The translations under genes were made by a program, and so were the position numbers. Of a stretch of DNA of 59,806 nt, positions 5,026-26,880 are shown one piece after another. Source of the DNA: a virus (lineage: Duplodnaviria; Caudoviricetes); IMG/VR virus record IMGVR_UViG_3300046171_000176, positions 1-59,806 of that record; one strand, written 5' to 3'. Numbering within the stretch: the first letter of the stretch is position 1; each line of letters opens with the position of its first letter. The notes under the pieces were generated by a model. That model ran no database searches and was not told where the DNA came from. It saw only the letters and a list, made by a program, of their open reading frames with translations.

Positions 5026-5583
5026 ATGAATATATTTTACTTACACGAAGACCCTCGGTTGGCGGCATCATATGTGTACGACAAGCATAAAGTGAAAATG
5101 ATTCTTGAATCAGCGCAGATGTTATGCACGGCACACCACGTGTTTGGTAATGGTAATAATGTTCCATACAAGCAAGCACACTTGAACCATCCGTCAACTA
5201 TCTGGGTCCGAGAAAATACTCATCATTATTATTGGTTATATGAACATATGTTAGCCTTAGGTGAAGAGTATACTAAACGATATGGCAAACGACATTTAAC
5301 AATTACTAAATGTGCAGAACCTTTGATTTATGCACCAATTGACATGCCGACATTGCCATATAAACATCCACCTCAGTGTATGCCTGACGAATATAAACGA
5401 CCACATGCTATACACGGTTACTGGAATTACTATATAAATGATAAATTTAAAATTTGTAATAAAAATGAAATACCATATAAAACGCCTCCTGTCCGTGTTA
5501 TGGACGATTACTTTAATGGCAACGGTAGCTCTAATATCATCTTTAGCCACTATGATATGGGCAGTAGACTTGCCACCGGATGA
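5026..5583 (+). CDS. pyrimidine-dimer DNA glycosylase family (DenV-like)
   Basis: MNIFYL...DKHKVKMILESAQMLCTAH, HLNHPSTIWVR, EYTKRYGKRH, PPQCMPDEYK. Confidence 0.8.
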   Translation: MNIFYLHEDPRLAASYVYDKHKVKMILESAQMLCTAHHVFGNGNNVPYKQAHLNHPSTIWVRENTHHYYWLYEHMLALGEEYTKRYGKRHLTITKCAEPLIYAPIDMPTLPYKHPPQCMPDEYKRPHAIHGYWNYYINDKFKICNKNEIPYKTPPVRVMDDYFNGNGSSNIIFSHYDMGSRLATG

Positions 5584-5837: not shown

Positions 5838-6448
5838 AAAGAAACTTTAAATACTTGCATGATAAAAGAATTATATACGGGAGAACCCCAATCACGGATG
5901 TTCCTACCGAATCAACTGATATATATGATTATTATGAAAACGGCACCTATCAATGTTACGCTTTATTTAGAAGCAAAGCTAAAATTACTACATATAAAAG
6001 TTTAAAGTGGCATTTCTTAGTTATACAACATTTAAATGGTGATTTAAATATGAAAGAACTTAAAAGAGTGTTTGAATATATAGCCAATATTAAAAATAAC
6101 TTTGTTACATTTTCAATGTCACATGGTGCATTTGATAAATTGGTTAATGAAGTTTTTATAACTGACGCTGAACGTCCGCCCAAAAACAGAATTAGAAAAG
6201 TAATATTTAAGCCTAACAAAATACTCACACTATCTGAAAAGCTTAGTATTGTAGGCCAATTAATTGGTCGTAGCAAGAAAATAGTTGAAGAGGATATATA
6301 CCAGTGCATGTTAGATTTAAATGATAACAAACAAAAAATAACCATAATTAAGCTTGCTCAGCTTTTAAAATGTTCAACAAGAACAATATACAGAAACATG
6401 GGTAACCAACTTAAAATTGAAAAAGAATTACTAAATAAAGAAATATGA
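5831..6448 (+). CDS. DNA-binding protein with C-terminal HTH
   Basis: ITIIKLAQLLKCSTRTIYRNM helix-turn-helix. Confidence 0.75.
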   Translation: MSQRNFKYLHDKRIIYGRTPITDVPTESTDIYDYYENGTYQCYALFRSKAKITTYKSLKWHFLVIQHLNGDLNMKELKRVFEYIANIKNNFVTFSMSHGAFDKLVNEVFITDAERPPKNRIRKVIFKPNKILTLSEKLSIVGQLIGRSKKIVEEDIYQCMLDLNDNKQKITIIKLAQLLKCSTRTIYRNMGNQLKIEKELLNKEI

Positions 6449-7209
6449 GAAAATATAATATTCAAAATTATATTAGGTATAAAAACGACGTAGAAAAACA
6501 ATTACAAAGAGTTAAGAAGCCAGTTGACGGTGATTATACAGGATTAACAGATGAAGAAATTAAAATTAATTTTCTTCCGTTAGTTGTTACTCTTGCACAT
6601 AAACAATCTACGTCGGACCAAGCGTCAGGTGTACTGAGTATACTTGATTTGTTTCAAGAAGGCAATGCGGGTTTGTGCTCTGCTGTTAATAAATTGGATA
6701 GAACTATTTTAGCTGAGTCTGAAGATCAAGAAAAGACTTTGAAGTCATTCTTATCGAAAAGAATTAAAGGCGCGATACGGAGGTCTGTAGATATGCACAG
6801 AGGCGAGATTAGAATACCAGAACATAAACTAAATGAAATTAGACGCAATCCAAAAGATGAGAAAATGGTTGCTATGTTTTTTAATAGTGTATTTTCTAGC
6901 ATCGATGATAAACCTAATGATGATGATAACATGGCTTATCAAGTTGTAGATAAGTCTGAGCCATATAATATAGCTTTACTCAATACATATTTATTGTCAC
7001 TGATGAGAACACATTTAACACCAGCACAATATGATGTATTAAGAATGAGCTATGGACTAGACTGCGATAAACATTCTGCGAATGAAATTGCAGCTAAACT
7101 AGGAATCAATGTTGCGACTGCTCATGTACGTATTTCACAGATAAAACGGGATGCTATACATTGCCTTATCGAAAACGTAGATAGCTCGCAAGTGCTTGAT
7201 TACCTGTAA
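6445..7209 (+). CDS. sigma70-family RNA polymerase sigma factor
   Basis: Region 2: FLPLVVTLAHK...DLFQEGNAGL...SKRIKGAIRR; region 4 HTH: LTPAQYDVLRMSYGL...NEIAAKLGI. Confidence 0.88.
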   Translation: MRKYNIQNYIRYKNDVEKQLQRVKKPVDGDYTGLTDEEIKINFLPLVVTLAHKQSTSDQASGVLSILDLFQEGNAGLCSAVNKLDRTILAESEDQEKTLKSFLSKRIKGAIRRSVDMHRGEIRIPEHKLNEIRRNPKDEKMVAMFFNSVFSSIDDKPNDDDNMAYQVVDKSEPYNIALLNTYLLSLMRTHLTPAQYDVLRMSYGLDCDKHSANEIAAKLGINVATAHVRISQIKRDAIHCLIENVDSSQVLDYL

Positions 7210-8769: not shown

Positions 8770-9084
8770 ATGGCAAGTATAATAGCAACAAGTATCGACT
8801 TAACAAAAATACCGAAAGATAAAATTATTGACGGTAAGAAAGGAAAATACTTACCTATTACAATTACTATTAACGATGAAACAGATCAGTTTGGTAATCA
8901 GGGTCCAGTGATTGTTCAACAATCAAAAGACGAAAGAGATGCTAAAATTGAAAAAGTTTATCTTGGTAATGTAAAGGTAGTATGGACCAATGGTGATAAT
9001 GTTGATGTAGCTCCCAGAGATGATCAACCCGCTCAAGCAGCTATGCCTACAAAACCACAACCAGTAGATGATTTACCATTTTAA
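8770..9084 (+). CDS. putative single-stranded DNA-binding protein
   Basis: Acidic C-terminal DDLPF tail; located between recombinase and primase. Confidence 0.65.
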   Translation: MASIIATSIDLTKIPKDKIIDGKKGKYLPITITINDETDQFGNQGPVIVQQSKDERDAKIEKVYLGNVKVVWTNGDNVDVAPRDDQPAQAAMPTKPQPVDDLPF

Positions 9085-9095
9085 ATAATTAATTA

Positions 9096-10817
9096 ATGCA
9101 AGTAAACAACACGGAGATTAACGGATTTTTAATCGACCAGTTTAACCAGCATGATTTAAAGGTTGGTGCAACGCAGGGGATTTGTCCCCTGTGTTCGCAT
9201 ACACGTAAACCTGAAAATCGTAAACAACAATGTGCTAGTTATGATTGGGAACGTGGATTAGGAACTTGTCATAACTGTGATTCAACATTTCAGCTACATA
9301 CATATCAACGTAAAGGTGAGCCATCAAAAGTTTATGAAAAACCTGATGCTACGCACGTCGTTGAAAATAAAGAGCTAAGTGAAAATGTTTATAAATGGTT
9401 TAAAGATCGTGGTATATCATATGAAACCTTAAATGATTTAAATATTACTGAAGGTAAAGAATATATGCCACAGACCGGACAAGTTGAGAATACTATCCAG
9501 TTCAATTATGTTATGGGTGATGAGCTCATTAATATTAAATATAGAGACGGACGAAAGAACTTTAAATTATATAAAGGTGCTGAGAAAGTCTTTTATAATA
9601 TAAATAGTATCGTAAACGACAATACATGTGTTATTGTTGAAGGTGAAATGGATGTGTTAGCATTTCATGAGGCTGGTATTAAAAACGTAGTATCAGTACC
9701 TAATGGTGCTACACTGAATCATAACAATTTAGATTATCTTGATAACTGTATAGATTATTTTACAGACAAAGAAAAAATAATATTAGCAGTTGATCAAGAC
9801 GACGCTGGCGCTGCACTACAAGCAGAATTGATTAGAAGATTAGGTGCTGAAGTATGTTACTTAGTAAACTTTGTAGATTGTAAAGATGCAAATGATTATT
9901 TACTTAAGTATGGTAAAGAAGACTTAGCTGAAACAATTAAAGAATGTAGACCAGTACCACTTGAAAATGTTACAACATTTAAAGATATAGAACATGAAGT
10001 TACAGACTTTGTTAAACACGGTTTCAAAAAAGGCTTTCAAGTTGGTCTTAATAACTTTGACAATATATTTAGTACTTACACTGGTCAATTTATTACGGTT
10101 ACTGGTATTCCTTCATCAGGTAAATCAGATTTTGTAGACCAAATGTGTGTTGGCTATAACAATAATTATGGCTGGCGAACTGCATTTGCATCTCCTGAGA
10201 ATGCACCAACATACTTACATGCCCATAAGTTAATGAGAAAAGTATGGCAAGATATGCCAAGATCATCAGATATTGGTACAAATAAATGGAAACAAGTAGC
10301 TGAACATGTTAACGATAATTTCTTTTTCATTGATATGGAAAGATATACACTTGAATCTGTATTACGTAAAGGTGCAGAGCTTGTAAAGCGTAAAGGTATT
10401 AAATGTTTAGTCATAGACCCGTTTAATAAAATACGTGATGTTGATGCAAAGACTGAGGATGTAAACAGATATACAATGGAATACTTAACAAAGATTGAAA
10501 CATTTGCAAAAAAGTTTGATGTATTAGTTTTTATTGTAGCGCATCCAACTAAAATGTATAAAACACAGGATGGTAAAATTGAAGAACCAACTATGTATAA
10601 CATCAAAGGCGGAGGTGAATGGTACGATGCATCTTATCATGGCATATTAGTACACAGAAATTACGAAGAAAAAACTGTTAAAGCAAAAGTTTTAAAAGTT
10701 AAGTTTCAGAATCTTGGTGAGAATGGAGCTGAGGCTCATTTTAAATGGGAACCAAGATCAGGTTGTTTTATACCTCACGAAGTATTAGAACCTGAAGAAG
10801 TAATGCCTTGGGAATAA
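9096..10817 (+). CDS. primase-helicase (T7 gp4/Twinkle-like)
   Basis: Zn-binding CPLC...CHNC; Toprim IVEGEMD, DQDDAG, KDAND; Walker A GIPSSGKS; VIDP, VAHP. Confidence 0.93.
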   Translation: MQVNNTEINGFLIDQFNQHDLKVGATQGICPLCSHTRKPENRKQQCASYDWERGLGTCHNCDSTFQLHTYQRKGEPSKVYEKPDATHVVENKELSENVYKWFKDRGISYETLNDLNITEGKEYMPQTGQVENTIQFNYVMGDELINIKYRDGRKNFKLYKGAEKVFYNINSIVNDNTCVIVEGEMDVLAFHEAGIKNVVSVPNGATLNHNNLDYLDNCIDYFTDKEKIILAVDQDDAGAALQAELIRRLGAEVCYLVNFVDCKDANDYLLKYGKEDLAETIKECRPVPLENVTTFKDIEHEVTDFVKHGFKKGFQVGLNNFDNIFSTYTGQFITVTGIPSSGKSDFVDQMCVGYNNNYGWRTAFASPENAPTYLHAHKLMRKVWQDMPRSSDIGTNKWKQVAEHVNDNFFFIDMERYTLESVLRKGAELVKRKGIKCLVIDPFNKIRDVDAKTEDVNRYTMEYLTKIETFAKKFDVLVFIVAHPTKMYKTQDGKIEEPTMYNIKGGGEWYDASYHGILVHRNYEEKTVKAKVLKVKFQNLGENGAEAHFKWEPRSGCFIPHEVLEPEEVMPWE

Positions 10818-11090
10818 ATGAAAAGTTTATACAAAAGAAGAAAGAAAAACTATTTACCGTCATATATGCCAACGCATGAAGAGCAGGAATGGAAATTATT
10901 TTGTACAAAAAACAATATAAGGATATCTCCATGGGGTACGCCACAAGACGGACAATGGAAAATTTGTATAAACATAGGCCCATATAAGCGAGGAGAAAAA
11001 TGTAACTTTGCTCCACATATATATAACAAACATACTTTATGGCCAGAGTATTATAAATTCTGTAAATATTATTATGATAAATATAAATGA
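10818..11090 (+). CDS. hypothetical protein
   Basis: ORF track. Confidence 0.6.
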   Translation: MKSLYKRRKKNYLPSYMPTHEEQEWKLFCTKNNIRISPWGTPQDGQWKICINIGPYKRGEKCNFAPHIYNKHTLWPEYYKFCKYYYDKYK

Positions 11091-11910
11091 ACAATATAGG
11101 ATATTAGTATCTGAAATACTTAATAGCGGTAAAAACAAGAACGATAGAACCGGAGTCGGTACACTATCAAAGTTTGGCTATACTATTAGACACGATATGG
11201 CATTAGGTTTTCCTTTGCTATACACAAAAAAAGTTTCTTTCAAAGCTGCTAAAGTCGAGCTTATGTGGATATTGCAAGGCAGAACTGATTTAAAATATTT
11301 GGAAGATAATGGTGTTAAATACTGGAGAGCAGATTATGAAAGGTCTGGTAGAACTGATGAAACATTAGGCCCAGTATATGGTAAGCAATGGCGTGACTTT
11401 AATGGTATTGATCAAATGTATGATTTATCTTTACAGTTGCACAATAATCCTAATTCAAGAAGAATGGTTGTATCAGCGTGGAATCCTGCTGATATGAAAG
11501 ATATGGCTTTACCGCCGTGTCATTATGGCTTTCAATGTTATGTAAACAATGGCAAGCTTGACTTAATGTGGCAACAAAGGTCTGTTGATGTATTCTTAGG
11601 TTTGCCTTATGATATAGCTATGTATGGTTTATTATTAGAACTATTAGCTAAAGGTCATGGTTTAAAACCTGGTAAATTAATTGGTCAGCTTGGTGATTGT
11701 CATATTTATAATAATCATATTGACCAAGCAACTACATTAATGTATAGAGACCCTGATACATATCATTGTCCAGTATTACAATTAGATACTATTGGTGTTG
11801 GTATTAATTCACAAAATGAAATTAATATTCCATCACTGGATAGTATGATATTACACGGGTATGAACACATGGGCGAAATAAAAGCTCCTTTAAACGTTGG
11901 AAAAAAATGA
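11074..11910 (+). CDS. thyA: thymidylate synthase homologue with Asn-to-Asp specificity residue (possible dCMP methyl/hydroxymethyltransferase)
   Basis: DRTGVGT, ELMWILQG, GPVYGKQWR, NSRR, MALPPCH, QRSVDVFLGLPYDIAMY, DCHIY; start set at ATG 11074. Confidence 0.9.
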   Translation: MININEQYRILVSEILNSGKNKNDRTGVGTLSKFGYTIRHDMALGFPLLYTKKVSFKAAKVELMWILQGRTDLKYLEDNGVKYWRADYERSGRTDETLGPVYGKQWRDFNGIDQMYDLSLQLHNNPNSRRMVVSAWNPADMKDMALPPCHYGFQCYVNNGKLDLMWQQRSVDVFLGLPYDIAMYGLLLELLAKGHGLKPGKLIGQLGDCHIYNNHIDQATTLMYRDPDTYHCPVLQLDTIGVGINSQNEINIPSLDSMILHGYEHMGEIKAPLNVGKK

Positions 11911-12701
11911 CAGAAACTTATTATTTATATCACATTCCTGGTAAAAAAATCGGCGTTACACGTGATCTTAATAGAAGGGTTACGCTAACGCAGGGTTATA
12001 AGCCTGGAGAATATGAGGTTCTAGAATCTTCTTCAGATATCAATTACATATCTGATAGAGAAATAGAACTTCAAAAGTCTTATGGCTATAGAAAAGATCA
12101 CAAACTTTATAAAAATTTATTTAAAATGAAAATAAACGTAACCGAACAAACCACAACATTCCCTGTACCTCTAACAAAATTAAAAGGTAGATTGCACGAT
12201 CAGGTTGGTTTAAACTGGCAAACTGAATTTGGTAAAATTCATTTATCTCCAGATTTAGCTAGCTGGATTGCAAACAATGCACACGTATCAATGTACAATA
12301 GCGATAGGAGTTATGTGTACAATAAAGCTTTATGGGAAGCATTTAACGATATGAATAGCTTTGAAAGCTTAGTTGATCAAGTTGAAACTAGAACGTGGAC
12401 GTTTGATAATATAAGAACATGGGCAAAAGAAAGAGGCTTGTACAAGAAAGGCAACAGTACTACACAATATGTTAAGCTTCAAGAAGAAGCTGGCGAGTTA
12501 GCTAAAGCGTTATTAAAAAATGATAAAGCTGAAATAAAAGATGCTATTGGAGATATTGTTGTAGTATTAACTAATTTAGCGCATTTAGAAAAGCTAACAA
12601 TAGAAGATTGTATTGATGCTGCCTATAAAGAAATATCAAATAGAACCGGAAAGATGGTTAATGGAACATTTGTAAAAGATGAAAAAAAGAAGGACTTATA
12701 A
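11907..12701 (+). CDS. GIY-YIG-like N-terminal domain fused to MazG-like nucleotide pyrophosphohydrolase
   Basis: N-terminal YYLYHI..KIGVTRDLNRR...REIELQ; C-terminal KLQEEAGELAKA...DAIGDIVVVL. Confidence 0.75.
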   Translation: MTETYYLYHIPGKKIGVTRDLNRRVTLTQGYKPGEYEVLESSSDINYISDREIELQKSYGYRKDHKLYKNLFKMKINVTEQTTTFPVPLTKLKGRLHDQVGLNWQTEFGKIHLSPDLASWIANNAHVSMYNSDRSYVYNKALWEAFNDMNSFESLVDQVETRTWTFDNIRTWAKERGLYKKGNSTTQYVKLQEEAGELAKALLKNDKAEIKDAIGDIVVVLTNLAHLEKLTIEDCIDAAYKEISNRTGKMVNGTFVKDEKKKDL

Positions 12702-13134
12702 AAGAAAAAGAGGTCCAGTAGTTTCTAAAAAAGTAACACACGACGGAATAACCTTTGCGTCTGGCTTAGAAAAATATATGTATTGTGCTTTGAAAAAAGC
12801 AGGCATAAAAGCTACATACGAAGGTGAAACATTCGTGTTATTAAATGGTTTTCACTTTGAAAATGAATGTTGGGAACGACAATCAAACAGCAAAGGATTA
12901 TTTAAAAATAGAGGTGAGAAAAGAATCTTACCCATAAAGTATACACCAGATTTTATTGGTAAAAGCTTTATAATAGAAACTAAAGGAAGACCCAACGAAT
13001 CGTTTCCAATGAGATGGAAACTATTTAAAAAATTAGTGATGCAACAATTTCCTAATTATACTTTATTTAAACCACAAAATCAAAAAGAATGCGATCGCGT
13101 AATAGAAATACTACAGAGTCAGCCAAACATTTAG
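12679..13134 (+). CDS. T7 endonuclease I-like Holliday junction resolvase
   Basis: FASGLE, YE, YTPDF, IETKG. Confidence 0.8.
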   Translation: MKKRRTYKRKRGPVVSKKVTHDGITFASGLEKYMYCALKKAGIKATYEGETFVLLNGFHFENECWERQSNSKGLFKNRGEKRILPIKYTPDFIGKSFIIETKGRPNESFPMRWKLFKKLVMQQFPNYTLFKPQNQKECDRVIEILQSQPNI

Positions 13135-13262
13135 CTAGACGAAAGTATAAAGAAAGAAAAATAGATACGTTTATTAAATGGTCGTTAGCTACACGTGGTT
13201 ATTTAAGGTGGCAAGACTTAGAGTTTATACATAATAAATATAATGTAAAATGCTATGGCTAA
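13089..13262 (+). CDS. small hypothetical protein (57 aa)
   Basis: Manual translation MRSRNRN...VKCYG*. Confidence 0.45.
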   Translation: MRSRNRNTTESAKHLARRKYKERKIDTFIKWSLATRGYLRWQDLEFIHNKYNVKCYG

Positions 13263-13392
13263 AAAAACAAATTTATTTCAATATAGAAAAAAACATAAAA
13301 TAAGACGTAAAGGAATTCATGCGAAATCTAAATCGTCAAATTTAAAAACAAGTAAAAATTATGTCAAACAATACAGAGGACAAGGCAGATAA
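13255..13392 (+). CDS. small basic protein ending YRGQGR
   Basis: Manual translation MAKKTNLF...KQYRGQGR*; this C-terminal motif is common in aquatic phages. Confidence 0.65.
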   Translation: MAKKTNLFQYRKKHKIRRKGIHAKSKSSNLKTSKNYVKQYRGQGR

Positions 13393-13522
13393 AAATTGGT
13401 CAATGGCATTAGGATTATATCCAGGTATATTATTTGGAGTAAGAACTTATCATGGACCAACACATTCACAAACTGTTATTTATCTACCATTTGTAGACCT
13501 CGCAATAGAATGGGAAAATTAA
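13361..13522 (+). CDS. small hypothetical protein (53 aa)
   Basis: Manual translation ...GLYPGILFGVRTY...YLPFVDLAIEWEN*. Confidence 0.55.
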   Translation: MSNNTEDKADKNWSMALGLYPGILFGVRTYHGPTHSQTVIYLPFVDLAIEWEN

Positions 13523-13523
13523 T

Positions 13524-14510
13524 ATGAATGTACCTTTATTTACAGAAAGAATACCTTACAAGCCTTTTGAATACCCTGAGTATTATACTGAAGGCTGGTT
13601 AAAACAAGCTCAAGCGTTTTGGTTACATACTGAAATACCAATGAGCGGTGACGTTAAAGATTGGAAAGAAAAACTAAATGACAAAGAGAAGAACCTGGTC
13701 GGAAACATATTACTCGGTTTCGCCCAAACAGAATGTGCAGTATCTGATTACTGGACGCAAAAAGTTGTATCGTGGTTTCCTAAGCACGAGATACAACAGA
13801 TGGCAATGATGTTTGGTAGTCAAGAGACTATCCATGCAGTTGCATATAGTTATTTGAATGAAACTTTAGGTCTTGAAGACTATGAAGCTTTCTTACATGA
13901 ACCTGCTACAGCAAAAAGATTTGAAAACTTAGTTGCTTATGAAGGTAATGATCCTGTAGGGATTGGTAAAAGTCTTGCAACATTTTCTGCATTTGCTGAA
14001 GGTGTATCTTTATATTCTGCATTTGCAGTATTATATTCTTTTCAAATGAGGAATTTACTTAAAGGTATTGGTCAGCAAATGAAATGGTCCGTAAGAGATG
14101 AATCGCTACATAGTAAAATGGGATGTCAACTATTTAGGCATATGTGTTCACAAATTCCTGGATTAAAAGAAGAATGTGAACCACATATATTTGAGGCTGC
14201 GTTAGAAATGCATAATGCTGAAATGACTTATATTAATAAGATATTTGAAATGGGTGATATAGAAAACTTAAAAAAATATGACTTGGTACACTTCATCAAA
14301 AAAAGAGTTGGAGACAAACTTGCAGAGCTTGGCTACAAAGATAAAAAGTATAAACAATGGGACTTCACAGGGTACGATCAAAAAGCAGTTGATAACATGG
14401 CTTGGTTTGATCATCTTACCGGGGGCCATACTCATACTGACTTTTTTGCTGTTAGACCAACTGATTACTCGAAAGCAAACGAAGGTGAAGACTTCGAAGA
14501 TATATGGTAG
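13524..14510 (+). CDS. nrdB: ribonucleotide reductase class Ia beta subunit
   Basis: FW..EI, QETIHAVAYS (radical Tyr), EGVSLYSAF, RDESLH, TDFF. Confidence 0.93.
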   Translation: MNVPLFTERIPYKPFEYPEYYTEGWLKQAQAFWLHTEIPMSGDVKDWKEKLNDKEKNLVGNILLGFAQTECAVSDYWTQKVVSWFPKHEIQQMAMMFGSQETIHAVAYSYLNETLGLEDYEAFLHEPATAKRFENLVAYEGNDPVGIGKSLATFSAFAEGVSLYSAFAVLYSFQMRNLLKGIGQQMKWSVRDESLHSKMGCQLFRHMCSQIPGLKEECEPHIFEAALEMHNAEMTYINKIFEMGDIENLKKYDLVHFIKKRVGDKLAELGYKDKKYKQWDFTGYDQKAVDNMAWFDHLTGGHTHTDFFAVRPTDYSKANEGEDFEDIW

Positions 14511-14755
14511 TGAAAAGAAAAATTCTAAAACTAATAGCAACAACTAAAAGACTGACGCCACTTGAAAAAATGTCTACTCGTATTGGGTATATGGGTGCAG
14601 GTTTTCTTGTGGCTGCGCAGTGGACAATTGAGCCAATGTTATATATTGTAGGTTTCATTTGTGTAATGGTGCAAACTGCTGCGCGTAAACAATGGAACTT
14701 AGTAGCATTAAACATAAATGGTTTAGTTGCTTGGATATCACATTTAATTAAATAA
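14504..14755 (+). CDS. small membrane protein
   Basis: 2-3 hydrophobic helices; inserted between nrdB and nrdA. Confidence 0.6.
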   Translation: MVVKRKILKLIATTKRLTPLEKMSTRIGYMGAGFLVAAQWTIEPMLYIVGFICVMVQTAARKQWNLVALNINGLVAWISHLIK

Positions 14756-14756
14756 T

Positions 14757-14981
14757 ATGGGAGTACAAAAAAATATTAAAAAACTGCAAGAGCAAAATGA
14801 AATATTAGGCGGCGCTTTAACTAGGGCATTAAAAGAATTAGATGCTTTAAAAGCATTAGCTCAAGGAACACTCACCGCCTTTCAATTACATATTGGAGAA
14901 GATGAGTGGAGTAAATTAGTAGAAGAACTTAAAAATTTAGAAAAAAGAGATGTGGAACAACAATTGGAAAAAGGGAATTGA
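14757..14981 (+). CDS. coiled-coil hypothetical protein
   Basis: ORF track. Confidence 0.6.
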   Translation: MGVQKNIKKLQEQNEILGGALTRALKELDALKALAQGTLTAFQLHIGEDEWSKLVEELKNLEKRDVEQQLEKGN

Positions 14982-16674
14982 TTATCCTAACTGGGGCGAT
15001 ACAGACGTATATAAGAAAACAATATCTGGTGGCTATTTAGTTAATGGTGAAACACCAAAAGATGCTTATATGCGTGTTTGTACAGCTGTATCAAAGCGTT
15101 TAAATCGCCCAGAACTAACTGAAACTTTCTTTGAATATATATGGAAGGGTTGGCTATGTTTAGCGTCTCCTGTGCTGTCTAATACAGGTACAGATCGAGG
15201 TCTACCTATATCATGCTTTGGTATAGATGTTGGCGATTCGATATATGAGATTGGTATGAAAAATCTCGAGATGATGCTACTTGCAAAACACGGCGGCGGA
15301 GTTGGTATCGGAGTAAATATGATTAGACCCGCCGGAGCTAATATAACTGGAAATGGAACATCTGATGGAACTGTGCCGTTTTGTAAAATTTACGATAGCA
15401 CTATACTTGCCACGAATCAAGGATCTGTCCGAAGAGGAGCTGCAAGCGTTAACATTAATATTGACCACCCCGACTTTGAAGAGTGGTTGGAAATACGTGA
15501 ACCTAAAGGAGACATTAATCGTCAGTCGCTCAACCTACACCAGTGTGCTGTGGTCGGCGATAAATTCATGCGAAAACTTGATACAGGTGATAAGAATGCA
15601 AGAAGATTATGGGGAAAGCTATTACAAAAGCGAAAAGCAACTGGAGAGCCTTATATTTTATTTAAGGGAAATACAAACAAAAATAATCCAGATGCATACA
15701 GAAAGCATGGGTTAAAAGTTCACATGACAAACATATGTAGTGAGATAACATTACACACTGATGAATCTCATTCATTTGTTTGCTGTCTATCATCATTAAA
15801 TTTAGCCAAATATGATGAATGGAAAAACACTAATCTAATATATGATAGTATATGGTTTTTAGATGGCGTGTTAGAAGAGTTTATACAAAAATCAAAAGGT
15901 AAAGTTGGCTTTCATAATTCTGTAAGATCTGCTGAAAAAGGTAGAGCATTAGGATTAGGAGTTCTTGGATGGCATACATATTTACAAGAACAAGGATTAC
16001 CGTTTGAAGGATTATTATCACAATATGAAACAAGAAGGATATTTTCACAAATTAAAATCGAATCTGAGAGAGCTTCCATGGCGCTTGCTGAGACTTTTGG
16101 CGAGCCTCTTTGGTGTCGTGGGTCTGGGTATCGTAACACTCATCTTCGTGCTATCGCACCTACTGTCAGTAATAGCAAGTTGTCTGGAAACGTTTCTCCC
16201 GGAATTGAGCCGTGGGCTGCTAACGTATTCACAGAGCAGTCTGCAAAAGGTACATTTATTCGCAAGAACCCTACGCTTAAAAAGGTACTCAGACGACATA
16301 AAATCGACACGGAAAAAGTCTGGAACAAAATCTTAAAAGATGGTGGTTCAGTACAAGGATTAAAAGAATTAGATAATATAACGCTAGGTAAATATAATGA
16401 TATACCAGCTAAAGATGTATTTAAAACTTTTAAAGAAATAAATCAATTAGAGTTAGTTAATCAAGCAGGTATACGTCAACAATATATTGACCAATCTGTT
16501 TCATTAAACTTAGCTTTTCCTGCTGTAGCTACACCAAAATGGATTAATAAAGTCCATATGGAAGCTTGGAAGAAAGGTATTAAAACTTTATATTATATGC
16601 GAACAGAATCTGTTCTGAGAGGAGATATTGCCGATTCAGCAATGGATGAAAATTGTTTAGCGTGTGACGGATAA
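14950..16674 (+). CDS. nrdA: ribonucleotide reductase class Ia alpha subunit
   Basis: ASPVLSN, PISCF, GGGVG, RRGA, TNICSEI, VCCLSS, APTVS, DQSVS, KTLYY, C-terminal CLAC. Confidence 0.95.
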   Translation: MWNNNWKKGIDYPNWGDTDVYKKTISGGYLVNGETPKDAYMRVCTAVSKRLNRPELTETFFEYIWKGWLCLASPVLSNTGTDRGLPISCFGIDVGDSIYEIGMKNLEMMLLAKHGGGVGIGVNMIRPAGANITGNGTSDGTVPFCKIYDSTILATNQGSVRRGAASVNINIDHPDFEEWLEIREPKGDINRQSLNLHQCAVVGDKFMRKLDTGDKNARRLWGKLLQKRKATGEPYILFKGNTNKNNPDAYRKHGLKVHMTNICSEITLHTDESHSFVCCLSSLNLAKYDEWKNTNLIYDSIWFLDGVLEEFIQKSKGKVGFHNSVRSAEKGRALGLGVLGWHTYLQEQGLPFEGLLSQYETRRIFSQIKIESERASMALAETFGEPLWCRGSGYRNTHLRAIAPTVSNSKLSGNVSPGIEPWAANVFTEQSAKGTFIRKNPTLKKVLRRHKIDTEKVWNKILKDGGSVQGLKELDNITLGKYNDIPAKDVFKTFKEINQLELVNQAGIRQQYIDQSVSLNLAFPAVATPKWINKVHMEAWKKGIKTLYYMRTESVLRGDIADSAMDENCLACDG

Positions 16675-16679
16675 TAATT

Positions 16680-16709
16680 AAGGGGCTTTTTTTAAGGCCC
16701 CTTTTTTTT
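16680..16709. terminator. bidirectional intrinsic terminator between convergent arms
   Basis: AAGGGGC...GCCCCTT stem followed by a T run, at the strand-switch point. Confidence 0.8.
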
Positions 16710-16766
16710 ATTTCTATTTGTTATTTACAAATGCAAAAGGGACAATTACAATTTTTCATAGTTTCA

Positions 16767-17231
16767 TTATATTACTTTATAAGCTGTTTTATTATTTTCG
16801 TCTTTATATGCTAATAAGCATTTATTTCTATTAGCTTCTTCATTTACATAACTTACATGAATCCAATCTGGGTTGTCAGAATTTCCAAATTCCCATATCA
16901 TCTGATCGAACGATAAATTATTCTTTATATATTCATACATATCAGCATTACTCATATAACCATACACATCATCAATATCAATTGCTTGGCCTTTACAATG
17001 TTGTGAATTAGAACTCCCACCGATTGCTTTATTTAATTCAGGTCCGCGATAGAATGAATTTATTTTTATTGGTCCGCCTACATGCTTTCTTAATGGTTCA
17101 AAAATCTTTTCAGCTAATAATTCCATATTAGTTAAATGAGTTTTTGTTGGATCATTATTTAAACCTAATCTCAAAGCAGTAATGCTATACACACCCTCTT
17201 TATATGAGATATGCTCGCTTATGTTTTTCAT
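16767..17231 (-). CDS. endolysin, peptidase M15A family
   Basis: INSFYR...NKAIGGSSNSQHCKGQAIDI...WIHVSY. Confidence 0.88.
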   Translation of the reverse strand: MKNISEHISYKEGVYSITALRLGLNNDPTKTHLTNMELLAEKIFEPLRKHVGGPIKINSFYRGPELNKAIGGSSNSQHCKGQAIDIDDVYGYMSNADMYEYIKNNLSFDQMIWEFGNSDNPDWIHVSYVNEEANRNKCLLAYKDENNKTAYKVI

Positions 17232-20019: not shown

Positions 20020-23000
20020 TTATTTTATTTTTCTTTTTACTATTGTTCTGCCTTTTCTTCTTTTTACTTGTTTTTCTTTTTTATCTTTTTCATTTTCTAT
20101 TCCTAATTCCCATGATCCCCATCCCATCAATAATGCCGTGCTTTGCCACCATTCTGCTTCATCACTCATTGCAGCTTCTATATTTTGTGCTTTTCTTAAT
20201 GCTCTATCTAATGGAAAATTAAATGTTGCTGATGCAGTTTGTGCTGCTGCTGACAATGCTGGATTATCTAATTTAGGTTCAAATACATTTTTGGGTGTAA
20301 CATATTTCATAGAATAACCTGCTCCTCTTAATCTTGTAAGTTTACCATACAATGGTGGAGATACTGTTAATGTTTTCCAAGCTGCTTGTTGGAAATCAGG
20401 GTTAGGTTTTTTAGATTGTTTAGCTATTTCCATTGCTACATTTTTTGCAGCTACAATAGCATTACCTGTCAAACCTGAACCTCTTAATAGTGAATCCGCC
20501 ATACCATTACCTATATCACTAGCTTTTGAAACTATTTTTTCGTCATCGTCATCATCGGCAAATGCTAATGCAAATACGGCTTTTTGCATAGCGTTAAATA
20601 TTAAGTTTTGTATTGTACTGTAATAAAGTATTTTACTTAATTTTTCTTTAGGATCGCCTCTACCATCAATAAGATCTTGGGCGTTTCTTTTTATAATTCT
20701 ATTATACTGCATTGGTGTATTAGCAAATGCTAACATAAATCTTCCTAAATTACCAGCTTGTTGTTCAGATATTCTATCTGGTCTACTAGATTGCTGTGTT
20801 TCTTCGGTTATAGCTTTAAAATCTAAAAATGCTTGTTTTTTAGCATCTGCTTCAGACATACCGTCTTTTATATATGTTTTAATCCTATTTCTATACATCG
20901 TTGCACCACCAGAAGCAATTGCAAAACTATCAGCCATTTTAGTAAGTATAAAACCTTTATTTAATAAATAACTAATTGTACCCTGCACACCACCTTTTTC
21001 TGCAGCTAATGCTAATTCGCTTTCATTAATATTTATTTTATTACCACCTCTTCTTTCCTGTAAGTAATCTGAATTAAATATTTCAACAAAATCAGCCCAA
21101 TACTGTGGTTGATTTGCAAACGCCTGTGCAGCTCTTAATGGATTATTGTCTTTATAGTTTATATAGTTTACATTTGAAATCATCTGTAATGCGGCAGATC
21201 TAGTATTTAAGAACATAATTGTTCCTACAGATCCGTTAACCCAATCATTCCAGGCTTGTAAATTTTTATCACCACCCCATTTTTTATTAGAGCCGTTTTT
21301 CATTCTTTGCAATGTAGCTTTTACATTCTTAACCCAGTTCTTACCGTATGCAGCCTCTAATTTAAACATGTTTTCTTTACTAAATAATATATCAACATTA
21401 TTTTGCCAAGCTTCTAAATGTTTACTTCTTTTATCTCCGTTTAATAATGACATTAAATCTATAGCAACATTACCACCCATCCAGCTTTCTTGTGGTTTTG
21501 GATAACCGTCGCCTTTAGTTATATTAATTAGCTCTGTAGCAAAAGCTAATAATTCTTTATCATTTTTAACTTCATTAACTAATTCTCTTACATCTTTTTT
21601 AGATAGCCCAGGTATTTCCATGCTTTGCCTTGTCCATGCATAAACTCTTACAGCTTGATCGTTCGTATAATCTCCACCTTTAGTAAACTTTTTTAATCTT
21701 TTAGGCACATTACTAAATTGCTTTTTTAATGCCATGAAGTCATTCATCATTGCTGACTTTTCTCTTGTTATACTTTCCATAGCTGCATTGTATGGATCAT
21801 ATAAATACTTTTTATAAAACTCTAATTGTTTTTCTCCCTTTTTGCCTTTAGCTAATGTTTTATGCATTAATCCACCAAAGTCTTCAGCTCCAGGTGGTAT
21901 AAAATAATCACCAAAAGATTTTCTAACTTTTGATCCTCTTGCTTCTGCCTTAGCTTGATTAAATACTTTTTCAGCACCTATACCTGTTGCACTTTCAAGA
22001 TATTGATTAAATTCTTTATTTATATCAACTTCAGCTGTTCTTGCTTTGCTAGCTTCTATGTTTGCTTTGTCTATCTTTTCAAGATTTTCTATAACTTCTT
22101 TATTACTTGGCTTTTTCTTTTTAGAAAAACTTAATTGTTCTTTTTTAGGTGCTAATTTATTTGCATTTAATGTGGCTTTACTAATATCAGGGTATCTTTC
22201 TTTTATATAAGTATCAATTGCATTTTTTGCCTGAACTGGCGTAATTTCATCTTTTATTTGTTCAAATATTAAATCAGATTGTTTTTCATATACATTTGCA
22301 TCAAATGATAATTTTGAAGGAACAACAACATTATATTTTTCAGCATGAGTTATACCTTCTTGCTTTATAGCATTAGGGTTTAATTTAACAACTTCATTAT
22401 ATAATCTTATATTAGAACTTGGTACTTCTTTCCAAGATATTTTTCCGTTAATAGCTTCTTGTATTTTTTGTTCTAAAAGCGGGTGTAGCTCTGATTTAGA
22501 TTTGTACTTTTTACCATTTAAATCATACGTTAAATCAACTTTATAATGACTATCTGTTCTGTTTTTTCCTTCACCACTTTTTAATGCAATTTGTATATAG
22601 TTATCAGCTAACCAATTTGCCATTGCTGTTTTAGTATCAGCATCTTTAATTTTAGAATATACACCAACTAATTTTGCAAATTGACCATGTTGCAATATGT
22701 GTTCTTCTAATATTTTTATTGCACCTTGTTCTAACCCAATTAGCTGAGCCATATTTCTTGTTGTAGCACCATTAGCATTTTGATTATAAACAACTAATCC
22801 AGTAGCTTTAGGATCAATAGCGTACATATCTGATAAAATATCTAATGCACCTTTAAAATTACTTTTAAAATTTTCCCTAATATTTAAATTCTTATTTAAA
22901 TTTTTTGTTTTTTGGCTTTTAATTACCATTGTCCAAGGAAATGCTTCTTCAACTTTTTTACCCTTAGTGGTTAAAGGTAATCCCAATTCTTCTTTTATTT

Positions 23001-26000
23001 TTTGTAAAGCAATTACTTCTAATAATTCGCCTTTATCTCTTGCTTGAATTGTTGCATTATCTAATGCCTGACTTACAAAAATACCATCTCGCATTCTTCT
23101 TATACTATTCCCGCCGGGGGCTAAATTACTTGGGGTCATAAAAAATGCAGAATTAGGTACTTGATCAATCATTTTTACATAGCTTCTGAAAATTTTACCT
23201 ATTTCTTGTACATTATCTTTATTTATTTTTCCTCCAAATTCATTTGCAACTTGTTCATTTATTTTAAGCTTTTTAACTTTACTAAACATTACATCAGCTT
23301 TACCCGCTGCTAAATCTTGTTTAGCTTCTAATGATAAATCACTTTCACTTCTTACAATTTCATTGGTAATTAATTTACCCGTAAGATTCATTATACCTTT
23401 TATTCTTTGTGCTTCAGGCGATCTTGGCGATAAACCTTCTCTTAGTTTTCCATCAACTATACCTAAACCTTCTAAAAACTGCTGCCTATTAATTGAATTA
23501 AGCTTATACGGACTCAAACCGGCCCCTCTGGTTAATCTTTCTTGCTTTGTATAAAAAACATCTAGCAATGATTTTGGAACTCCTGTGGATGTACCTAATA
23601 ATCTTTCGCTTGCAGCTTCAACAACAGCACCTTTAGGTAATAATCTTAATAATTTATCTACATTTTTATTTATATTTCTTGCAGCATTGTTTAAATCACC
23701 TTTATTTAAGTTGGCTTTTGGATCTGTAACTTTTTTAGCTGGTACTTCAAATATTTCAGCCGTAGTTTCTGGTGATAAATCTTTTAGCCTTTTAAATGTT
23801 AAATCTTTTTTAGGAACATTTTTAAGGCCTTTCATTATTTTAGATTTTGCAGCTTCAATATCTTTTAATAATGAACTTGGTTTTATTTTTTTACTTACTG
23901 GTTTTTCAGTAACAGTTTCAGTTTCTTGCGCTGTAACTCCTTTTGCTTCAGTTACATCAACTGTAAATTCTTCACCTAATATTTTATTAGACGCTTCAAT
24001 CATTCTTGAAGGTAAAAATTTATTTACATATGCAGCTAATGGGACACCAGAATCAGGATTATAGCTTCTTATTAAACCAAGTATACCTCTATCAGAATAT
24101 TTTATTTCACTTGTTAAATCTTCTTTATTAAAATTAGGTGCTTCTCTTCTTTTATCTACTAGCTTATTAATTATAGGATTAAATGCTTCAATAATATCAA
24201 ATGATCCGTCAACACCTTTTTCATTGTAGATATTTTGTACATTGTCTGATGCTTGTTTTGAAAGTGCTACTTCAGCTAGGCCAACTTTACCAATACCTTT
24301 AGCTAAACCTTTTGATAATCGACCTTTGTTTATACTATTTGTATATTGACGTGAGAAATTAAATACATCTTGGGCATTATTAAATTCAATCTTTTTATAA
24401 GGCGTAAACCTTCTTATCATTTCAGTTAACCAATCTTTTAACTTAGTTGCCCAATCTTGTTTGTATTTTATACTACCGTCCTGACTCAAATCAGAAAATA
24501 CACTAAAAAATTCTTTAGCATGCTCAGAAGGATCATATCTTTTATTTAACGCGTCTTGCAATAATTGTTTTTCAGTAGTTGGCAATAATTCTAAAAAATT
24601 ATTTTGTAATTGTTGTAATTGCTCAGGATTAAGTGTTTTTAATTTTTCAGCTATAACGCCATGCATTACTTCATGACCACCAACGTTTAAATTACTTGTT
24701 TCAGCAGCAACTTGTTCGTTAATATATATTTTATTACCTGATATAAAACCTCCAACTTCACCTAATTCAGATTTTTGTTCATCATTTAATTTAATGCCAT
24801 CTGCTTCAATACCTGCTTTAAAATCTTGTGTGTTTTGAAATGCTAAAGTTTCTAATCCTATGCTCTCTGCAGATTTTGCAAATTCAGTTGATTTTTTAAC
24901 ATCGCCTTCTTTATTTATTTGTACAAGCCTATTATTTATTTCTTCTAGCCTACTGGTATCTGCCTCTAAAAAATTTTCATCAAGATTTTTTATATTATTT
25001 AATATTTTTTGTTTTTCAACAATCAAATCAACAGCTTCAATTCTGCTTTCGTTTTTAATATACGTAGGTATTTTCAAGTTAGCATCCTCAATATTATTAA
25101 TAGCTTGAATAGTTTCATCAGCTTCTTCTCTAGTTATTTCGTTGTTTTTAACCTTTATTTCTAATTCTTTTTTAGTATTTGATAATATAGGTGTTATACG
25201 TTTAGGGTCAAATTTTGAACTTATTTCTTTAACAGTTTGAACAGTTTCTCTAGCTGTTGCTCTTGTTACATTACCAGCAAATGGCAAAACAGCACCAACA
25301 AAACCACCGTCCTGAGCGCTCTTTATAACGTTATTTAAATCAATATATTTAAATATATCATCCTGAGCCGCGCCTGCACCTAATTGTGAAACTATTGTTT
25401 GAAAACCTTCTGTTAAATATTCAGTAAAACCACCTTTTAATATACCTTTCCCCCCTTCTTTAAGTCCTCCCGATTTTATATATTTTTTTAATCCATCTTT
25501 TACAATACTTCTAACAATATCTTTGCCTCCTGCAGAACCAAGAACACCTTTAACTATTTGTGATGCTCCATAGGACTCTAGCAAACTTGATATGACTGCT
25601 TGTGTTGTTGCTAATCCTCTTTCTCCATTTCCTGCCTCAACAGCTTTTAAAATATTTTCAGCAGTTGCAGGTTTATCACCTAAACTATTATAAACGTTTT
25701 CAAAGTAAGCACTACCAAATTCCTGCATATATACTCCCAAACCACCCGTAAAAGCCGCAAAACCTAATTGAGGTATTTGTTTAGCTATTAAACCTAAGCC
25801 ATCTTTTGAAAAATAATCTACATCTTTAGGTAATTGTTTATAAAAAGATAAATCTATTTCTCTTTGCTCTATTCCTTTTAAATTAGCTAAAAATTTAGAT
25901 TTAGCATCTGTTATTTCTTGATCATAATATCCAAGCGCTTCTTCTTTTGAACCTTTTTTTGTGCCAATTTTAAAACCTTCTTTTTGTGAAAAAGTTCCAC

Positions 26001-26880
26001 CGTAGCTTACCTCTGCGTTGTCTCTTGAATTTTCTATAGATTCTCTTTCTTTTTTTAATCTAATAATATTTTCTCCAATATTTGCAGTAGCACCTTTTTT
26101 GATTGCTAAAGTTATATCTTTAAATCCAGATTTTAAAAATTCTCCAAAATATGTTTTTTCATCTAACCCTAATCTTTCTCTATTATACTTTACATTTCTT
26201 TCTTCTAATTCTGCATCTAAAGCATTTTGAAATTTATTTATACGGTCTTCAAATGTTTTATTACTAGATATTTTATTAGATAAAAAAGCATTTATTCTTT
26301 TTACATATTCTTCGTTAGCATTTTTTACACCTTCTTCAGTAGTTAAATCAAATTCTTTTTTAACATCATTTAAAATTTTATCTGTAAAAGCTTTATTAAA
26401 TTTTAATATATCAGAAGATAAATCATTTAAATAACTGTCTGAGTTTATTGCTTTTTGTATTATTGAACTATATTTTTCTTGATCAATATTTATTTCTCTA
26501 CCAGGTTGAAAATCATCATCTAATATTGAAGATTTTATTTTTGATCTTGCAATTTTGCTTGTTAATGCTGGTGCATAAGGGTCTACTTTTGAATTTAATA
26601 AAAAATCAATTCTTGTTTTTGAATTTCTATTTTCTTCATATGATTTATACGATTCACCATAATTTATTTTATCTTCTTGTGGCACCAAAGAACCAGGATC
26701 CGAAGTGGAATCCATATCGGGTGCTGCAGTTTCCTCCACAGTCGCACCCTGAACTGCGGGAGTTTGCTTTCCCGGATCTCCATTTTTCATAATTTGAGCA
26801 CCGGGAGAAATAGAAACAAATTTATCTACTTCATTTTCAGGAACATCGTATTCCTTATTATTATATAAAACTTTAATCAT
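20020..26880 (-). CDS. giant internal virion/ejection polyprotein with HExxH zincin and embedded sigma region-2-like domain
   Basis: Follows tail and small ejection genes; HEVMH at aa 736-740; sigma-r2-like segment at aa ~893-968; hydrophobic Gly/Ala-rich segments. Confidence 0.75.
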   Translation of the reverse strand: MIKVLYNNKEYDVPENEVDKFVSISPGAQIMKNGDPGKQTPAVQGATVEETAAPDMDSTSDPGSLVPQEDKINYGESYKSYEENRNSKTRIDFLLNSKVDPYAPALTSKIARSKIKSSILDDDFQPGREINIDQEKYSSIIQKAINSDSYLNDLSSDILKFNKAFTDKILNDVKKEFDLTTEEGVKNANEEYVKRINAFLSNKISSNKTFEDRINKFQNALDAELEERNVKYNRERLGLDEKTYFGEFLKSGFKDITLAIKKGATANIGENIIRLKKERESIENSRDNAEVSYGGTFSQKEGFKIGTKKGSKEEALGYYDQEITDAKSKFLANLKGIEQREIDLSFYKQLPKDVDYFSKDGLGLIAKQIPQLGFAAFTGGLGVYMQEFGSAYFENVYNSLGDKPATAENILKAVEAGNGERGLATTQAVISSLLESYGASQIVKGVLGSAGGKDIVRSIVKDGLKKYIKSGGLKEGGKGILKGGFTEYLTEGFQTIVSQLGAGAAQDDIFKYIDLNNVIKSAQDGGFVGAVLPFAGNVTRATARETVQTVKEISSKFDPKRITPILSNTKKELEIKVKNNEITREEADETIQAINNIEDANLKIPTYIKNESRIEAVDLIVEKQKILNNIKNLDENFLEADTSRLEEINNRLVQINKEGDVKKSTEFAKSAESIGLETLAFQNTQDFKAGIEADGIKLNDEQKSELGEVGGFISGNKIYINEQVAAETSNLNVGGHEVMHGVIAEKLKTLNPEQLQQLQNNFLELLPTTEKQLLQDALNKRYDPSEHAKEFFSVFSDLSQDGSIKYKQDWATKLKDWLTEMIRRFTPYKKIEFNNAQDVFNFSRQYTNSINKGRLSKGLAKGIGKVGLAEVALSKQASDNVQNIYNEKGVDGSFDIIEAFNPIINKLVDKRREAPNFNKEDLTSEIKYSDRGILGLIRSYNPDSGVPLAAYVNKFLPSRMIEASNKILGEEFTVDVTEAKGVTAQETETVTEKPVSKKIKPSSLLKDIEAAKSKIMKGLKNVPKKDLTFKRLKDLSPETTAEIFEVPAKKVTDPKANLNKGDLNNAARNINKNVDKLLRLLPKGAVVEAASERLLGTSTGVPKSLLDVFYTKQERLTRGAGLSPYKLNSINRQQFLEGLGIVDGKLREGLSPRSPEAQRIKGIMNLTGKLITNEIVRSESDLSLEAKQDLAAGKADVMFSKVKKLKINEQVANEFGGKINKDNVQEIGKIFRSYVKMIDQVPNSAFFMTPSNLAPGGNSIRRMRDGIFVSQALDNATIQARDKGELLEVIALQKIKEELGLPLTTKGKKVEEAFPWTMVIKSQKTKNLNKNLNIRENFKSNFKGALDILSDMYAIDPKATGLVVYNQNANGATTRNMAQLIGLEQGAIKILEEHILQHGQFAKLVGVYSKIKDADTKTAMANWLADNYIQIALKSGEGKNRTDSHYKVDLTYDLNGKKYKSKSELHPLLEQKIQEAINGKISWKEVPSSNIRLYNEVVKLNPNAIKQEGITHAEKYNVVVPSKLSFDANVYEKQSDLIFEQIKDEITPVQAKNAIDTYIKERYPDISKATLNANKLAPKKEQLSFSKKKKPSNKEVIENLEKIDKANIEASKARTAEVDINKEFNQYLESATGIGAEKVFNQAKAEARGSKVRKSFGDYFIPPGAEDFGGLMHKTLAKGKKGEKQLEFYKKYLYDPYNAAMESITREKSAMMNDFMALKKQFSNVPKRLKKFTKGGDYTNDQAVRVYAWTRQSMEIPGLSKKDVRELVNEVKNDKELLAFATELINITKGDGYPKPQESWMGGNVAIDLMSLLNGDKRSKHLEAWQNNVDILFSKENMFKLEAAYGKNWVKNVKATLQRMKNGSNKKWGGDKNLQAWNDWVNGSVGTIMFLNTRSAALQMISNVNYINYKDNNPLRAAQAFANQPQYWADFVEIFNSDYLQERRGGNKININESELALAAEKGGVQGTISYLLNKGFILTKMADSFAIASGGATMYRNRIKTYIKDGMSEADAKKQAFLDFKAITEETQQSSRPDRISEQQAGNLGRFMLAFANTPMQYNRIIKRNAQDLIDGRGDPKEKLSKILYYSTIQNLIFNAMQKAVFALAFADDDDDEKIVSKASDIGNGMADSLLRGSGLTGNAIVAAKNVAMEIAKQSKKPNPDFQQAAWKTLTVSPPLYGKLTRLRGAGYSMKYVTPKNVFEPKLDNPALSAAAQTASATFNFPLDRALRKAQNIEAAMSDEAEWWQSTALLMGWGSWELGIENEKDKKEKQVKRRKGRTIVKRKIK

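Follow-up and report, generated by a model that had tools for sequence, protein, structure and literature searches.

A ThyA-family gene with aspartate at the Asn177 position, predicted to encode a dCMP C5-methyltransferase, in an uncultured phage and its relatives

The window analysed here is the whole of the IMG/VR virus record IMGVR_UViG_3300046171_000176 (59,806 bp; completeness estimate 93%), with a G+C content of about 32% (A+T 68%). According to profile scans, its plus strand carries an early and replication module between about 400 and 16,700, and within this module lies the subject of the present study, a gene of the ThyA family (11074..11910, +; PF00303, TIGR03284, phrog_160), the product of which is predicted to be a deoxycytidine monophosphate (dCMP) C5-methyltransferase, i.e., a 5-methyl-dCMP synthase. 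The ATG at 11074 opens a frame of 278 residues, closed by a TGA stop at 11908-11910, in which RSVDVFLGLPYDIAMYGLL and MALPPCHYG occur. Although the listed open reading frame (ORF) starts further upstream, at a TTG (11008), the relatives have N-termini (MININ... or MTNIE...) that favour the ATG at 11074.

The protein matches PF00303 with an E-value of 3.4e-84, residues 6-274 lying on profile positions 1-265 of 266, and thus constitutes a full-length ThyA. In PHROGs it matches phrog_160, which is filed as thymidylate synthase (E 2.5e-100), and its best relative among solved structures is 6auj (E 2.8e-68). Its identity to E. coli ThyA amounts to 44%, that of the latter to T4 gp42 to 23%. Individual sites were read from a reference alignment with E. 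coli K-12 ThyA (NC_000913), the enzyme of phage XP12, and T4 gp42, each taken from its own record. In E. coli numbering, the resulting site code is R21, E58, W80, Y94, A142, L143, C146, H147, Q165, R166, S167, V168, D169, G173, D177, H207, and Y209; R126/R127 are also present in the alignment with E. coli ThyA. The active-site stretch DMALPPCH (11497..11520, +) holds Leu at E. coli position 143, the catalytic Cys146, and His147 in the alignment. Cys146 and the phosphate-binding residues R21, R126/R127, and R166 are intact, so that the statement of a preliminary description of this DNA that the catalytic PPCH and the other motifs are intact is borne out by the alignments with E. coli ThyA.

Departures from E. 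coli ThyA concern C168, which is replaced by Val, F176, which is replaced by Tyr, and Trp83, with which Tyr or Asp is paired, according to the alignment used. Furthermore, the C-terminus runs 2-3 residues past the canonical end at E. coli Ile264 (IKAPLNV-GKK; window 11890-11910, +), following the pattern IKA[PE]L[SN]VG[KN](K) in the clade formed by the protein and its close relatives. All 13 sampled clade members have this extension, against none of the other 14 Asp177 representatives whose C-terminus is aligned and 10 of 135 Asn177 sequences. Concerning annotation, the TIGR03284 score of 263.7 bits lies above the cut-off of 108.35, and pipelines would therefore label the protein thymidylate synthase, which is also the name borne by its relatives in the databases; in the stricter NF002497 it scores 286.9, under the cut-off of 327. 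The earlier assertion that standard annotation would miss a dCMP specificity is right, as these scores and names show.

The central feature of the gene is the codon GAT at 11611..11613 (+), situated within RSVDVFLGLPYDIAMYGLL (11600-11619 reads ...ggtttgcctta tgatatagct...). It encodes Asp180 of the protein, which falls into the column of E. coli ThyA Asn177; sequence reading and alignment agree on this point, and the E. coli ThyA string RSCDVFLGLPFNIASYALL used for comparison in the preliminary description is identical to that of the NC_000913 record. Asp occupies the same column in the XP12 enzyme and in T4 gp42, the latter in accordance with the earlier claim on the T4 dCMP hydroxymethylase. 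In a canonical dTMP synthase (EC 2.1.1.45), an Asn at this position reads O4/N3 of uracil.

All of the 121 proteins examined, namely the query together with the 120 database relatives that match it best (64-98% identical), carry the motif GLPYDI. A pattern search of IMG/VR yielded 392 matches, 390 of which encode a relative, and the locus counts given here refer to 80 loci kept out of these 390 confirmed relatives. Asp177 and Asp169 are each present in 80/80 kept loci, and a motif scan found Leu143/His147 in 79/80, the odd row probably being a pattern mis-hit. The Asp is neither chance nor a sequencing error, because the homologues keep it. Contigs assembled from four seawater runs also cross the codon, and no change at 11611-13 is among the 40 differences listed (of 150), which is supportive only; uncovered bins lie at 11738-11871 (X18). 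Of 24 listed seawater runs, 16 contain half or more of the words sampled from this region. Within the clade, the members of which diverge down to 58% identity, the Asp does not vary, and this invariance suggests purifying selection on the switch, which would be odd for an ordinary synthase of thymidine monophosphate (dTMP).

The published residue code gives this pattern a meaning. The exchange N177D is cited as turning E. coli thymidylate synthase, like that of L. casei, into a dCMP methylase (PMC8670742), in agreement with what the preliminary description had put forward as established. In the same virome study, Asp177 is the top residue marking ThyA genes on cytosine-modified contigs, position 147 is the second residue associated with modification, and PRA-PH is encoded together with thymidylate synthases, in many cases specifically where the contig is modified (PMC8670742). 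At position 143, hydrophobic residues go with a methyl product and Asp or Glu with a hydroxymethyl product, and D169N marks flavin-dependent 5-hydroxy-dCMP synthases (PMC13326640). The authors of a preprint, who screened IMG/VR for D177 ThyA, found that five of seven virome D177 enzymes as well as the XP12 enzyme made 5-methyldeoxycytidine (5mdC) in E. coli (bioRxiv 10.1101/2024.12.05.627091). On this code, Asp177 is predicted to select dCMP over deoxyuridine monophosphate (dUMP), Leu143 to favour a methyl product, and Asp169 to exclude 5-hydroxylation, and the combination of D177, L143, and D169 makes a dCMP 5-methyltransferase the best reading. The product had earlier been given as either 5-methyl- or 5-hydroxymethyl-dCMP; the dCMP specificity is supported by the residue code, and between the two products the code favours the methyl one.

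The gene directly downstream (11907..12701, +) overlaps the ThyA stop with its ATG (ATGA) and encodes a protein of 264 residues in three parts. It matches PF03819 (E 6.2e-07, 30 bits, cut-off 22), PF01503 (E 1.5e-06), and phrog_1992 (E 1.1e-35), and its AlphaFold model has a mean confidence (pLDDT) of 88.8. Residues ~157-264 form a MazG-like NTP pyrophosphohydrolase part with EEAGE...DxxGD motifs, in which E193, E194, E197, and D212/D216 are invariant among 30 sequences. In structural comparisons this part matches 1vmg (Z 9.7, rmsd 2.3, 83 residues aligned), the MazG of cyanophage S-2L (7ody, Z 9.3), and mouse RS21-C6 (Z 7.4). The S-2L enzyme removes a canonical deoxynucleoside triphosphate, and the mouse protein is a dCTP pyrophosphatase. 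From its gene context, the downstream MazG domain is proposed to act on dCTP to give dCMP. A comparison with T4 gp56 yielded short local matches only (best E 0.002 over 20 residues), which do not serve as evidence for a dCTPase ancestor in common.

The N-terminal half of this protein (window 11907-12371, +) is likewise conserved across the lineage. Among 48,161 chains, residues ~4-66 of the model match I-TevI (1ln0, Z 6.0, rmsd 3.1, 61 residues aligned), with I-TevI and UvrC in the top three, and further matches are a restriction enzyme specific for 5-hydroxymethylcytosine (5hmC; Z 5.3), the UvrC GIY-YIG domain (Z 5.0), and T4 EndoII (Z 4.3), all of them below Z 8. Y5, Y8, R24, and E52 are invariant in the 30 sequences, and the Tyr of the second motif is an invariant Lys14. 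In Pfam the N-terminal part matches only T5orf172 (E 0.077), and Foldseek with the N-terminal 155 residues returned nothing at E <= 0.001. Judged from the model, residues 4-66 are GIY-YIG-like, with modest scores, and for residues ~75-155 no convincing structural match was found.

In the 80 loci the gene order is primase-helicase, (orf90), ThyA with Asp, MazG protein, DUF1064, ribonucleotide reductase (RNR) small subunit, and RNR large subunit. The MazG protein gene directly follows ThyA in 79 of them, and the remaining locus ends 64 bases past ThyA. In the window, the primase-helicase is located at 9096-10817 (+), and orf90, an ORF of 90 residues, lies between it and the ThyA-like gene on the same strand. 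A DUF1064 resolvase-like protein is encoded between the MazG protein gene and that of the RNR small subunit (+). The small subunit (13524..14510, +; PF00268, E 1.4e-53) and the large subunit (14950..16674, +; PF02867, E 2e-91) are both syntenic in the relatives. Family membership, residue pattern, strict conservation, and conserved neighbourhood are directly established. Between the two RNR genes lie two small ORFs (14504-14981, +); the corresponding distance in relatives ranges from 5 bases to ~2 kb (loci L039, L041, L044, L048, L053, and L068), and this variability suggests insertions such as homing endonucleases.

The place of the protein in the ThyA family was studied in an alignment of 165 rows, composed of 149 representatives no shorter than 200 residues, 13 clade samples, and three references; the representatives stem from the 150 nearest 50%-identity clusters, one fragment of 104 residues being left out. 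Position 177 is Asn in 135 rows (134 of the 149 representatives and E. coli ThyA), Asp in 29, and Ser in one; with 135 Asn among 164 Asn-or-Asp rows, Asn is the norm and Asp exceptional. In a FastTree tree computed without the 177 column, in which deep branches are weakly resolved, the window clade is joined by two representatives in a group of 15 rows, all of them with Asp (support 99), and XP12 is placed elsewhere, its partner being P0244 (support 96). On this tree the Asp/Asn label needs 13 changes, at least seven of these changes being forced by well-supported branches. Constraining all Asp rows to one clade costs 101.8 log-likelihood units (approximately unbiased test, p 0.018) in a subsample of 55 rows, which consists of 21 Asp rows (the clade thinned to six, T4 gp42 excluded) and 34 randomly drawn Asn rows. 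Because of the label changes and the failed constraint, the Asn-to-Asp switch probably arose more than once, with the window lineage separate from that of XP12; the evidence for this is moderate.

Taken together, the gene would encode a natural "N177D" thymidylate synthase, the substrate of which has been switched from dUMP to dCMP. As expected from ThyA chemistry, Cys146 would attack C6 of dCMP, and Asp177 would form hydrogen bonds to N3 of cytosine and to its 4-amino group, in the place from which an Asn would recognise uracil. The carbon would come from methylene-tetrahydrofolate. Since Leu143, which excludes water, is retained along with the remainder of the ThyA folate site, hydride transfer would complete the methyl group to yield 5-methyl-dCMP. 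The MazG-like domain of the translationally coupled protein would convert dCTP to dCMP, thereby feeding the methylase and barring dCTP from phage DNA, and the phage RNR would supply deoxynucleotides. Host kinases or an unrecognised phage kinase would raise 5-methyl-dCMP to the triphosphate, and the host replisome would incorporate 5-methyl-dCTP, such that 5-methylcytosine (5mC) would largely replace cytosine and many restriction enzymes would be resisted. Substrate and product, the specificity of the pyrophosphatase, phosphorylation by the host, incorporation by the host polymerase, and 5mC in the virion are all inferred, and we regard the whole chain, from a dCMP 5-methyltransferase to 5mC in virion DNA, as rather probable.

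Several observations weigh against this chain. Family scans of the record found no deoxynucleoside monophosphate (dNMP) kinase, Walker-A motifs occurring only in the helicase and in an ORF of 86 residues, and DNA polymerase Pol A was found neither in the record nor in any of five complete relatives (G001-G005), in which no Pol B was detected either. The missing kinase and polymerase are the main weakness of the step to a modified genome. In published experiments, two of the seven D177 enzymes tested gave no 5mdC, the in vivo assays added the T4 gp1 kinase (bioRxiv 10.1101/2024.12.05.627091), and related 5-hydroxy enzymes made only traces of product without their cognate kinase (PMC13326640). 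Regarding the residue code itself, His147 is retained here, as opposed to Pro in XP12 and Thr in T4 gp42, and the Leu143 rule is a correlation only, as the proven methylase of XP12 aligns Asn at 143. Finally, the palindrome CATG, a site containing C, is mildly avoided in the window (observed/expected 0.61; 109 vs 179.6, z -5.3). Other sites range from 0.62 for CGCG, 0.65 for GGCC, and 0.78 for GATC to values near 1 for the rest, and CpG and GpC are at 0.73 and 1.37, respectively; palindrome statistics were nevertheless discarded as an argument for or against cytosine protection, the signal being too weak and comparator genomes being lacking. A polarised substitution spectrum would be no better guide to 5mC deamination, because mutation biased towards AT points the same way. 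The record contains no C5 DNA methyltransferase.

The likeliest alternative is a thymidylate route, or an enzyme of dual substrate, in which dCMP (perhaps also dUMP) is methylated and the product is mostly deaminated by the host to dTMP/dTTP, leaving little or no 5mC in the virion. An AT-rich genome (32% G+C) would suit such a route, as would the missing phage kinase or polymerase that could favour a modified nucleotide. XP12-type phages deaminate part of their 5mdCTP to dTTP, so that a second thymidylate synthase is not needed (bioRxiv 10.1101/2024.12.05.627091), and the window phage is likewise without one: no second ThyA and no ThyX were found in the record, and each of the five complete relatives has a single gene of the thymidylate synthase family. 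On the other hand, the published deaminase is encoded by the phage beside the synthase gene, 104 of 149 being on modified contigs (same preprint), whereas no dCMP-family deaminase was found in the record or in any of the five complete relatives. Within the single-sequence sensitivity of tblastn, the XP12 deaminase, DHFR-like protein, and HAD hydrolase had no hits in the 80 loci, the deaminase being searched for within 6 kb. In addition, a plain Asn177 enzyme would be a simpler source of dTMP, and the known deaminating phages still have 5mC genomes. A thymidylate route is considered unlikely.

According to a second alternative, the enzyme is a dCMP hydroxymethylase that produces 5-hydroxymethyl-dCMP, possibly because the altered C-terminus admits water to the exocyclic methylene intermediate. 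Asp177 is indeed common to T4 gp42, Trp83 is not retained, and the 2-3 extra residues occur in all 13 sampled clade members; Carreras, Climie and Santi reportedly found in 1992 that the C-terminus of thymidylate synthase is needed for the hydride-transfer step. The hydroxymethylases, however, have Asp or Glu at 143, where 79 of the 80 loci have Leu, and the protein is far closer to E. coli ThyA than the latter is to T4 gp42 (see the identities above). Nor did family scans of the record reveal any transferase, whether for glycosyl, carbamoyl, or other groups, to which a hydroxymethyl group would serve as a handle, and this alternative appears quite improbable.

The least probable alternative, an ordinary dUMP-using thymidylate synthase that tolerates the Asp in a phage with unmodified DNA, can draw on the canonical state of every other ThyA active-site residue (His147 included), on the classification by NCBIfam and PHROGs, and on the imperfection of residue-based prediction (52.9% of 17 examined synthases on unmodified contigs were predicted dT-makers; bioRxiv 10.1101/2024.12.05.627091), but it is opposed by the N-to-D mutagenesis of two enzymes, which shifts preference to dCMP (as cited in PMC8670742), by the invariance of the Asp in a clade diverging to 58% identity, and by its exceptional standing among the Asn-or-Asp rows.

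Among the known systems closest to the predicted dCMP 5-methyltransferase is the enzyme of phage XP12, in the genome of which 5mC fully replaces cytosine. Both share the ThyA fold, the catalytic Cys, Asp177, Asp169, an RNR in the genome, and 5-methyl-dCMP as product (predicted in the case of the window enzyme), but they are only ~27% identical over the tblastn match and belong to separate supported groups in the tree. XP12 possesses Asn143 and Pro147 and no canonical IKAP...C-terminus, whereas the window enzyme, which looks more canonical, has Leu143, His147, and the IKAP motif; the XP12 gene adjoins a dCMP deaminase, a DHFR-like gene, and a HAD hydrolase, none of which was found at the loci of the window lineage. 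The closest mechanistic analogue is the engineered thymidylate synthase, E. coli N177D or L. casei N229D, which is otherwise canonical (Leu143, Cys146, His147, Asp169). Compared with it, the window enzyme is natural and conserved, carries Val/Ala at C168 and Tyr at F176, does not keep Trp83, and has the C-terminal extension.

The virome D177 ThyA proteins (MetaGPA, Yang et al. 2021 eLife; 2024 preprint) have the same Asp177 and a PRA-PH/MazG partner, but the set tested was chosen for an adjacent dCMP-family deaminase, which the window lineage is without. T4 presents the same Asp in gp42 and follows the logic proposed here, in which a ThyA homologue that modifies dCMP is accompanied by a pyrophosphatase that destroys dCTP (gp56). 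Unlike the window enzyme, gp42 has Asp143, Thr147, and no ThyA C-terminus, and unlike the window phage, T4 encodes its own kinase, polymerase, and glucosyltransferases. The 5-hydroxy-dCMP synthases RB69 gp48 and DLP3 gp80 share Asp177 and act on dCMP, the substrate predicted for the window enzyme, but are flavin-binding and have D169N and L143E, whereas Asp169 and Leu143 are found in the window enzyme.

Concerning the remaining genes of the early module, all on the plus strand, an ATP-dependent ligase, an ERF recombinase, and a PD-(D/E)XK exonuclease are encoded, as well as a DenV-like pyrimidine-dimer DNA glycosylase domain (5026-5583; PF03013, E 7.1e-06; labelled "DNA binding protein" in PHROGs). 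A protein with weak similarity to sigma-70 region 2/region 4 (6445-7209), below the Pfam cut-offs, may be a phage sigma factor. The phage thus has no detectable Pol A, yet possesses a primase-helicase, a ligase, an ERF/exonuclease pair, and a resolvase; a pol-B exonuclease is annotated in the record of the related Callevirus Calle_1. The minus strand contains lysis, virion, and packaging genes together with GroEL-like and GroES-like genes. The GroEL-like chaperonin (56136-57698, -) shares ~40% identity with the GroELs that phages of Flavobacterium, Bacteroides, and Cellulophaga encode. Two matches to GroES-like co-chaperonins lie at 55892-56149 and 44171-44761 (-; phrog_3188, phrog_13932). An ORF of 2286 residues in the virion module (20020-26880, -), with zero PHROG or Pfam matches, may encode a very large protein of the virion interior or one that is ejected.

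Judged by the terminase, the window is closest to the records of an uncultured Manatee Spring podovirus (61.5%) and of the Flavobacterium Elemovirus (44%), followed by those of Cellulophaga, Tenacibaculum, and Maribacter phages; Calle_1 was found as a relative through its GroEL match. No ThyA-family gene is present in the records of the Manatee Spring podovirus, Elemovirus, and Calle_1 (0/3), and these three are therefore uninformative on the DNA composition of the window lineage. Megablast of 9000-17000 against the phage collection gave no match, and no cultured close relative was found. Because of the terminase relatives, and because the source of one protein closely related to the ThyA is given as a Polaribacter metagenome-assembled genome, the host is probably a marine member of Flavobacteriia.

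That Asp177 ThyA in uncultured phages predicts 5mC/5hmC genomes, that it is paired with PRA-PH/MazG, and that it is mis-annotated has already been published (PMC8670742 and bioRxiv 10.1101/2024.12.05.627091). No paper describing Asp177 ThyA in flavobacterial phages was found in the literature, supplementary sequence lists not being covered, and the words "thymidylate", "MazG", and "methylcytosine" do not occur in Bartlau et al. (PMC8776804). The modest addition made here consists of a marine lineage, probably of flavobacterial podophages, that is large, uncultured, syntenic, and minimal in its gene set, of an extension of the C-terminus specific to this lineage, and of a conserved GIY-YIG-like/MazG fusion; as the principle was established before, the gain is one of breadth and not of concept. 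More speculatively, a widespread lineage of marine podophages of ~60-66 kb, probably with Flavobacteriia hosts, might achieve genome-wide 5mC by a minimal kit composed of the Asp177 ThyA and the three-domain protein, with a switch independent of that of XP12. Unmodified DNA of the host would then be the target of the GIY-YIG-like part, whereas the MazG part would break down dCTP, and, given that no own polymerase, dNMP kinase, or deaminase was found, the host replisome and kinases would have to handle 5-methyl-dCTP. This wider scenario is doubtful as a whole.

If the predicted dCMP 5-methyltransferase and its consequences hold true, a common group of marine phages, relatives of which are encoded on at least 390 IMG/VR contigs, would have DNA with fully 5-methylated cytosine. 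This would bear on which host restriction systems work against them, on the recovery of their DNA by enzymatic library methods, and on gene annotation. The enzyme itself would be a natural, near-canonical N177D ThyA, useful for learning what else changes when substrate specificity flips, and the phage, without kinase, polymerase, or deaminase of its own, would represent a minimal case for the tolerance of hosts towards 5-methyl-dC nucleotides.

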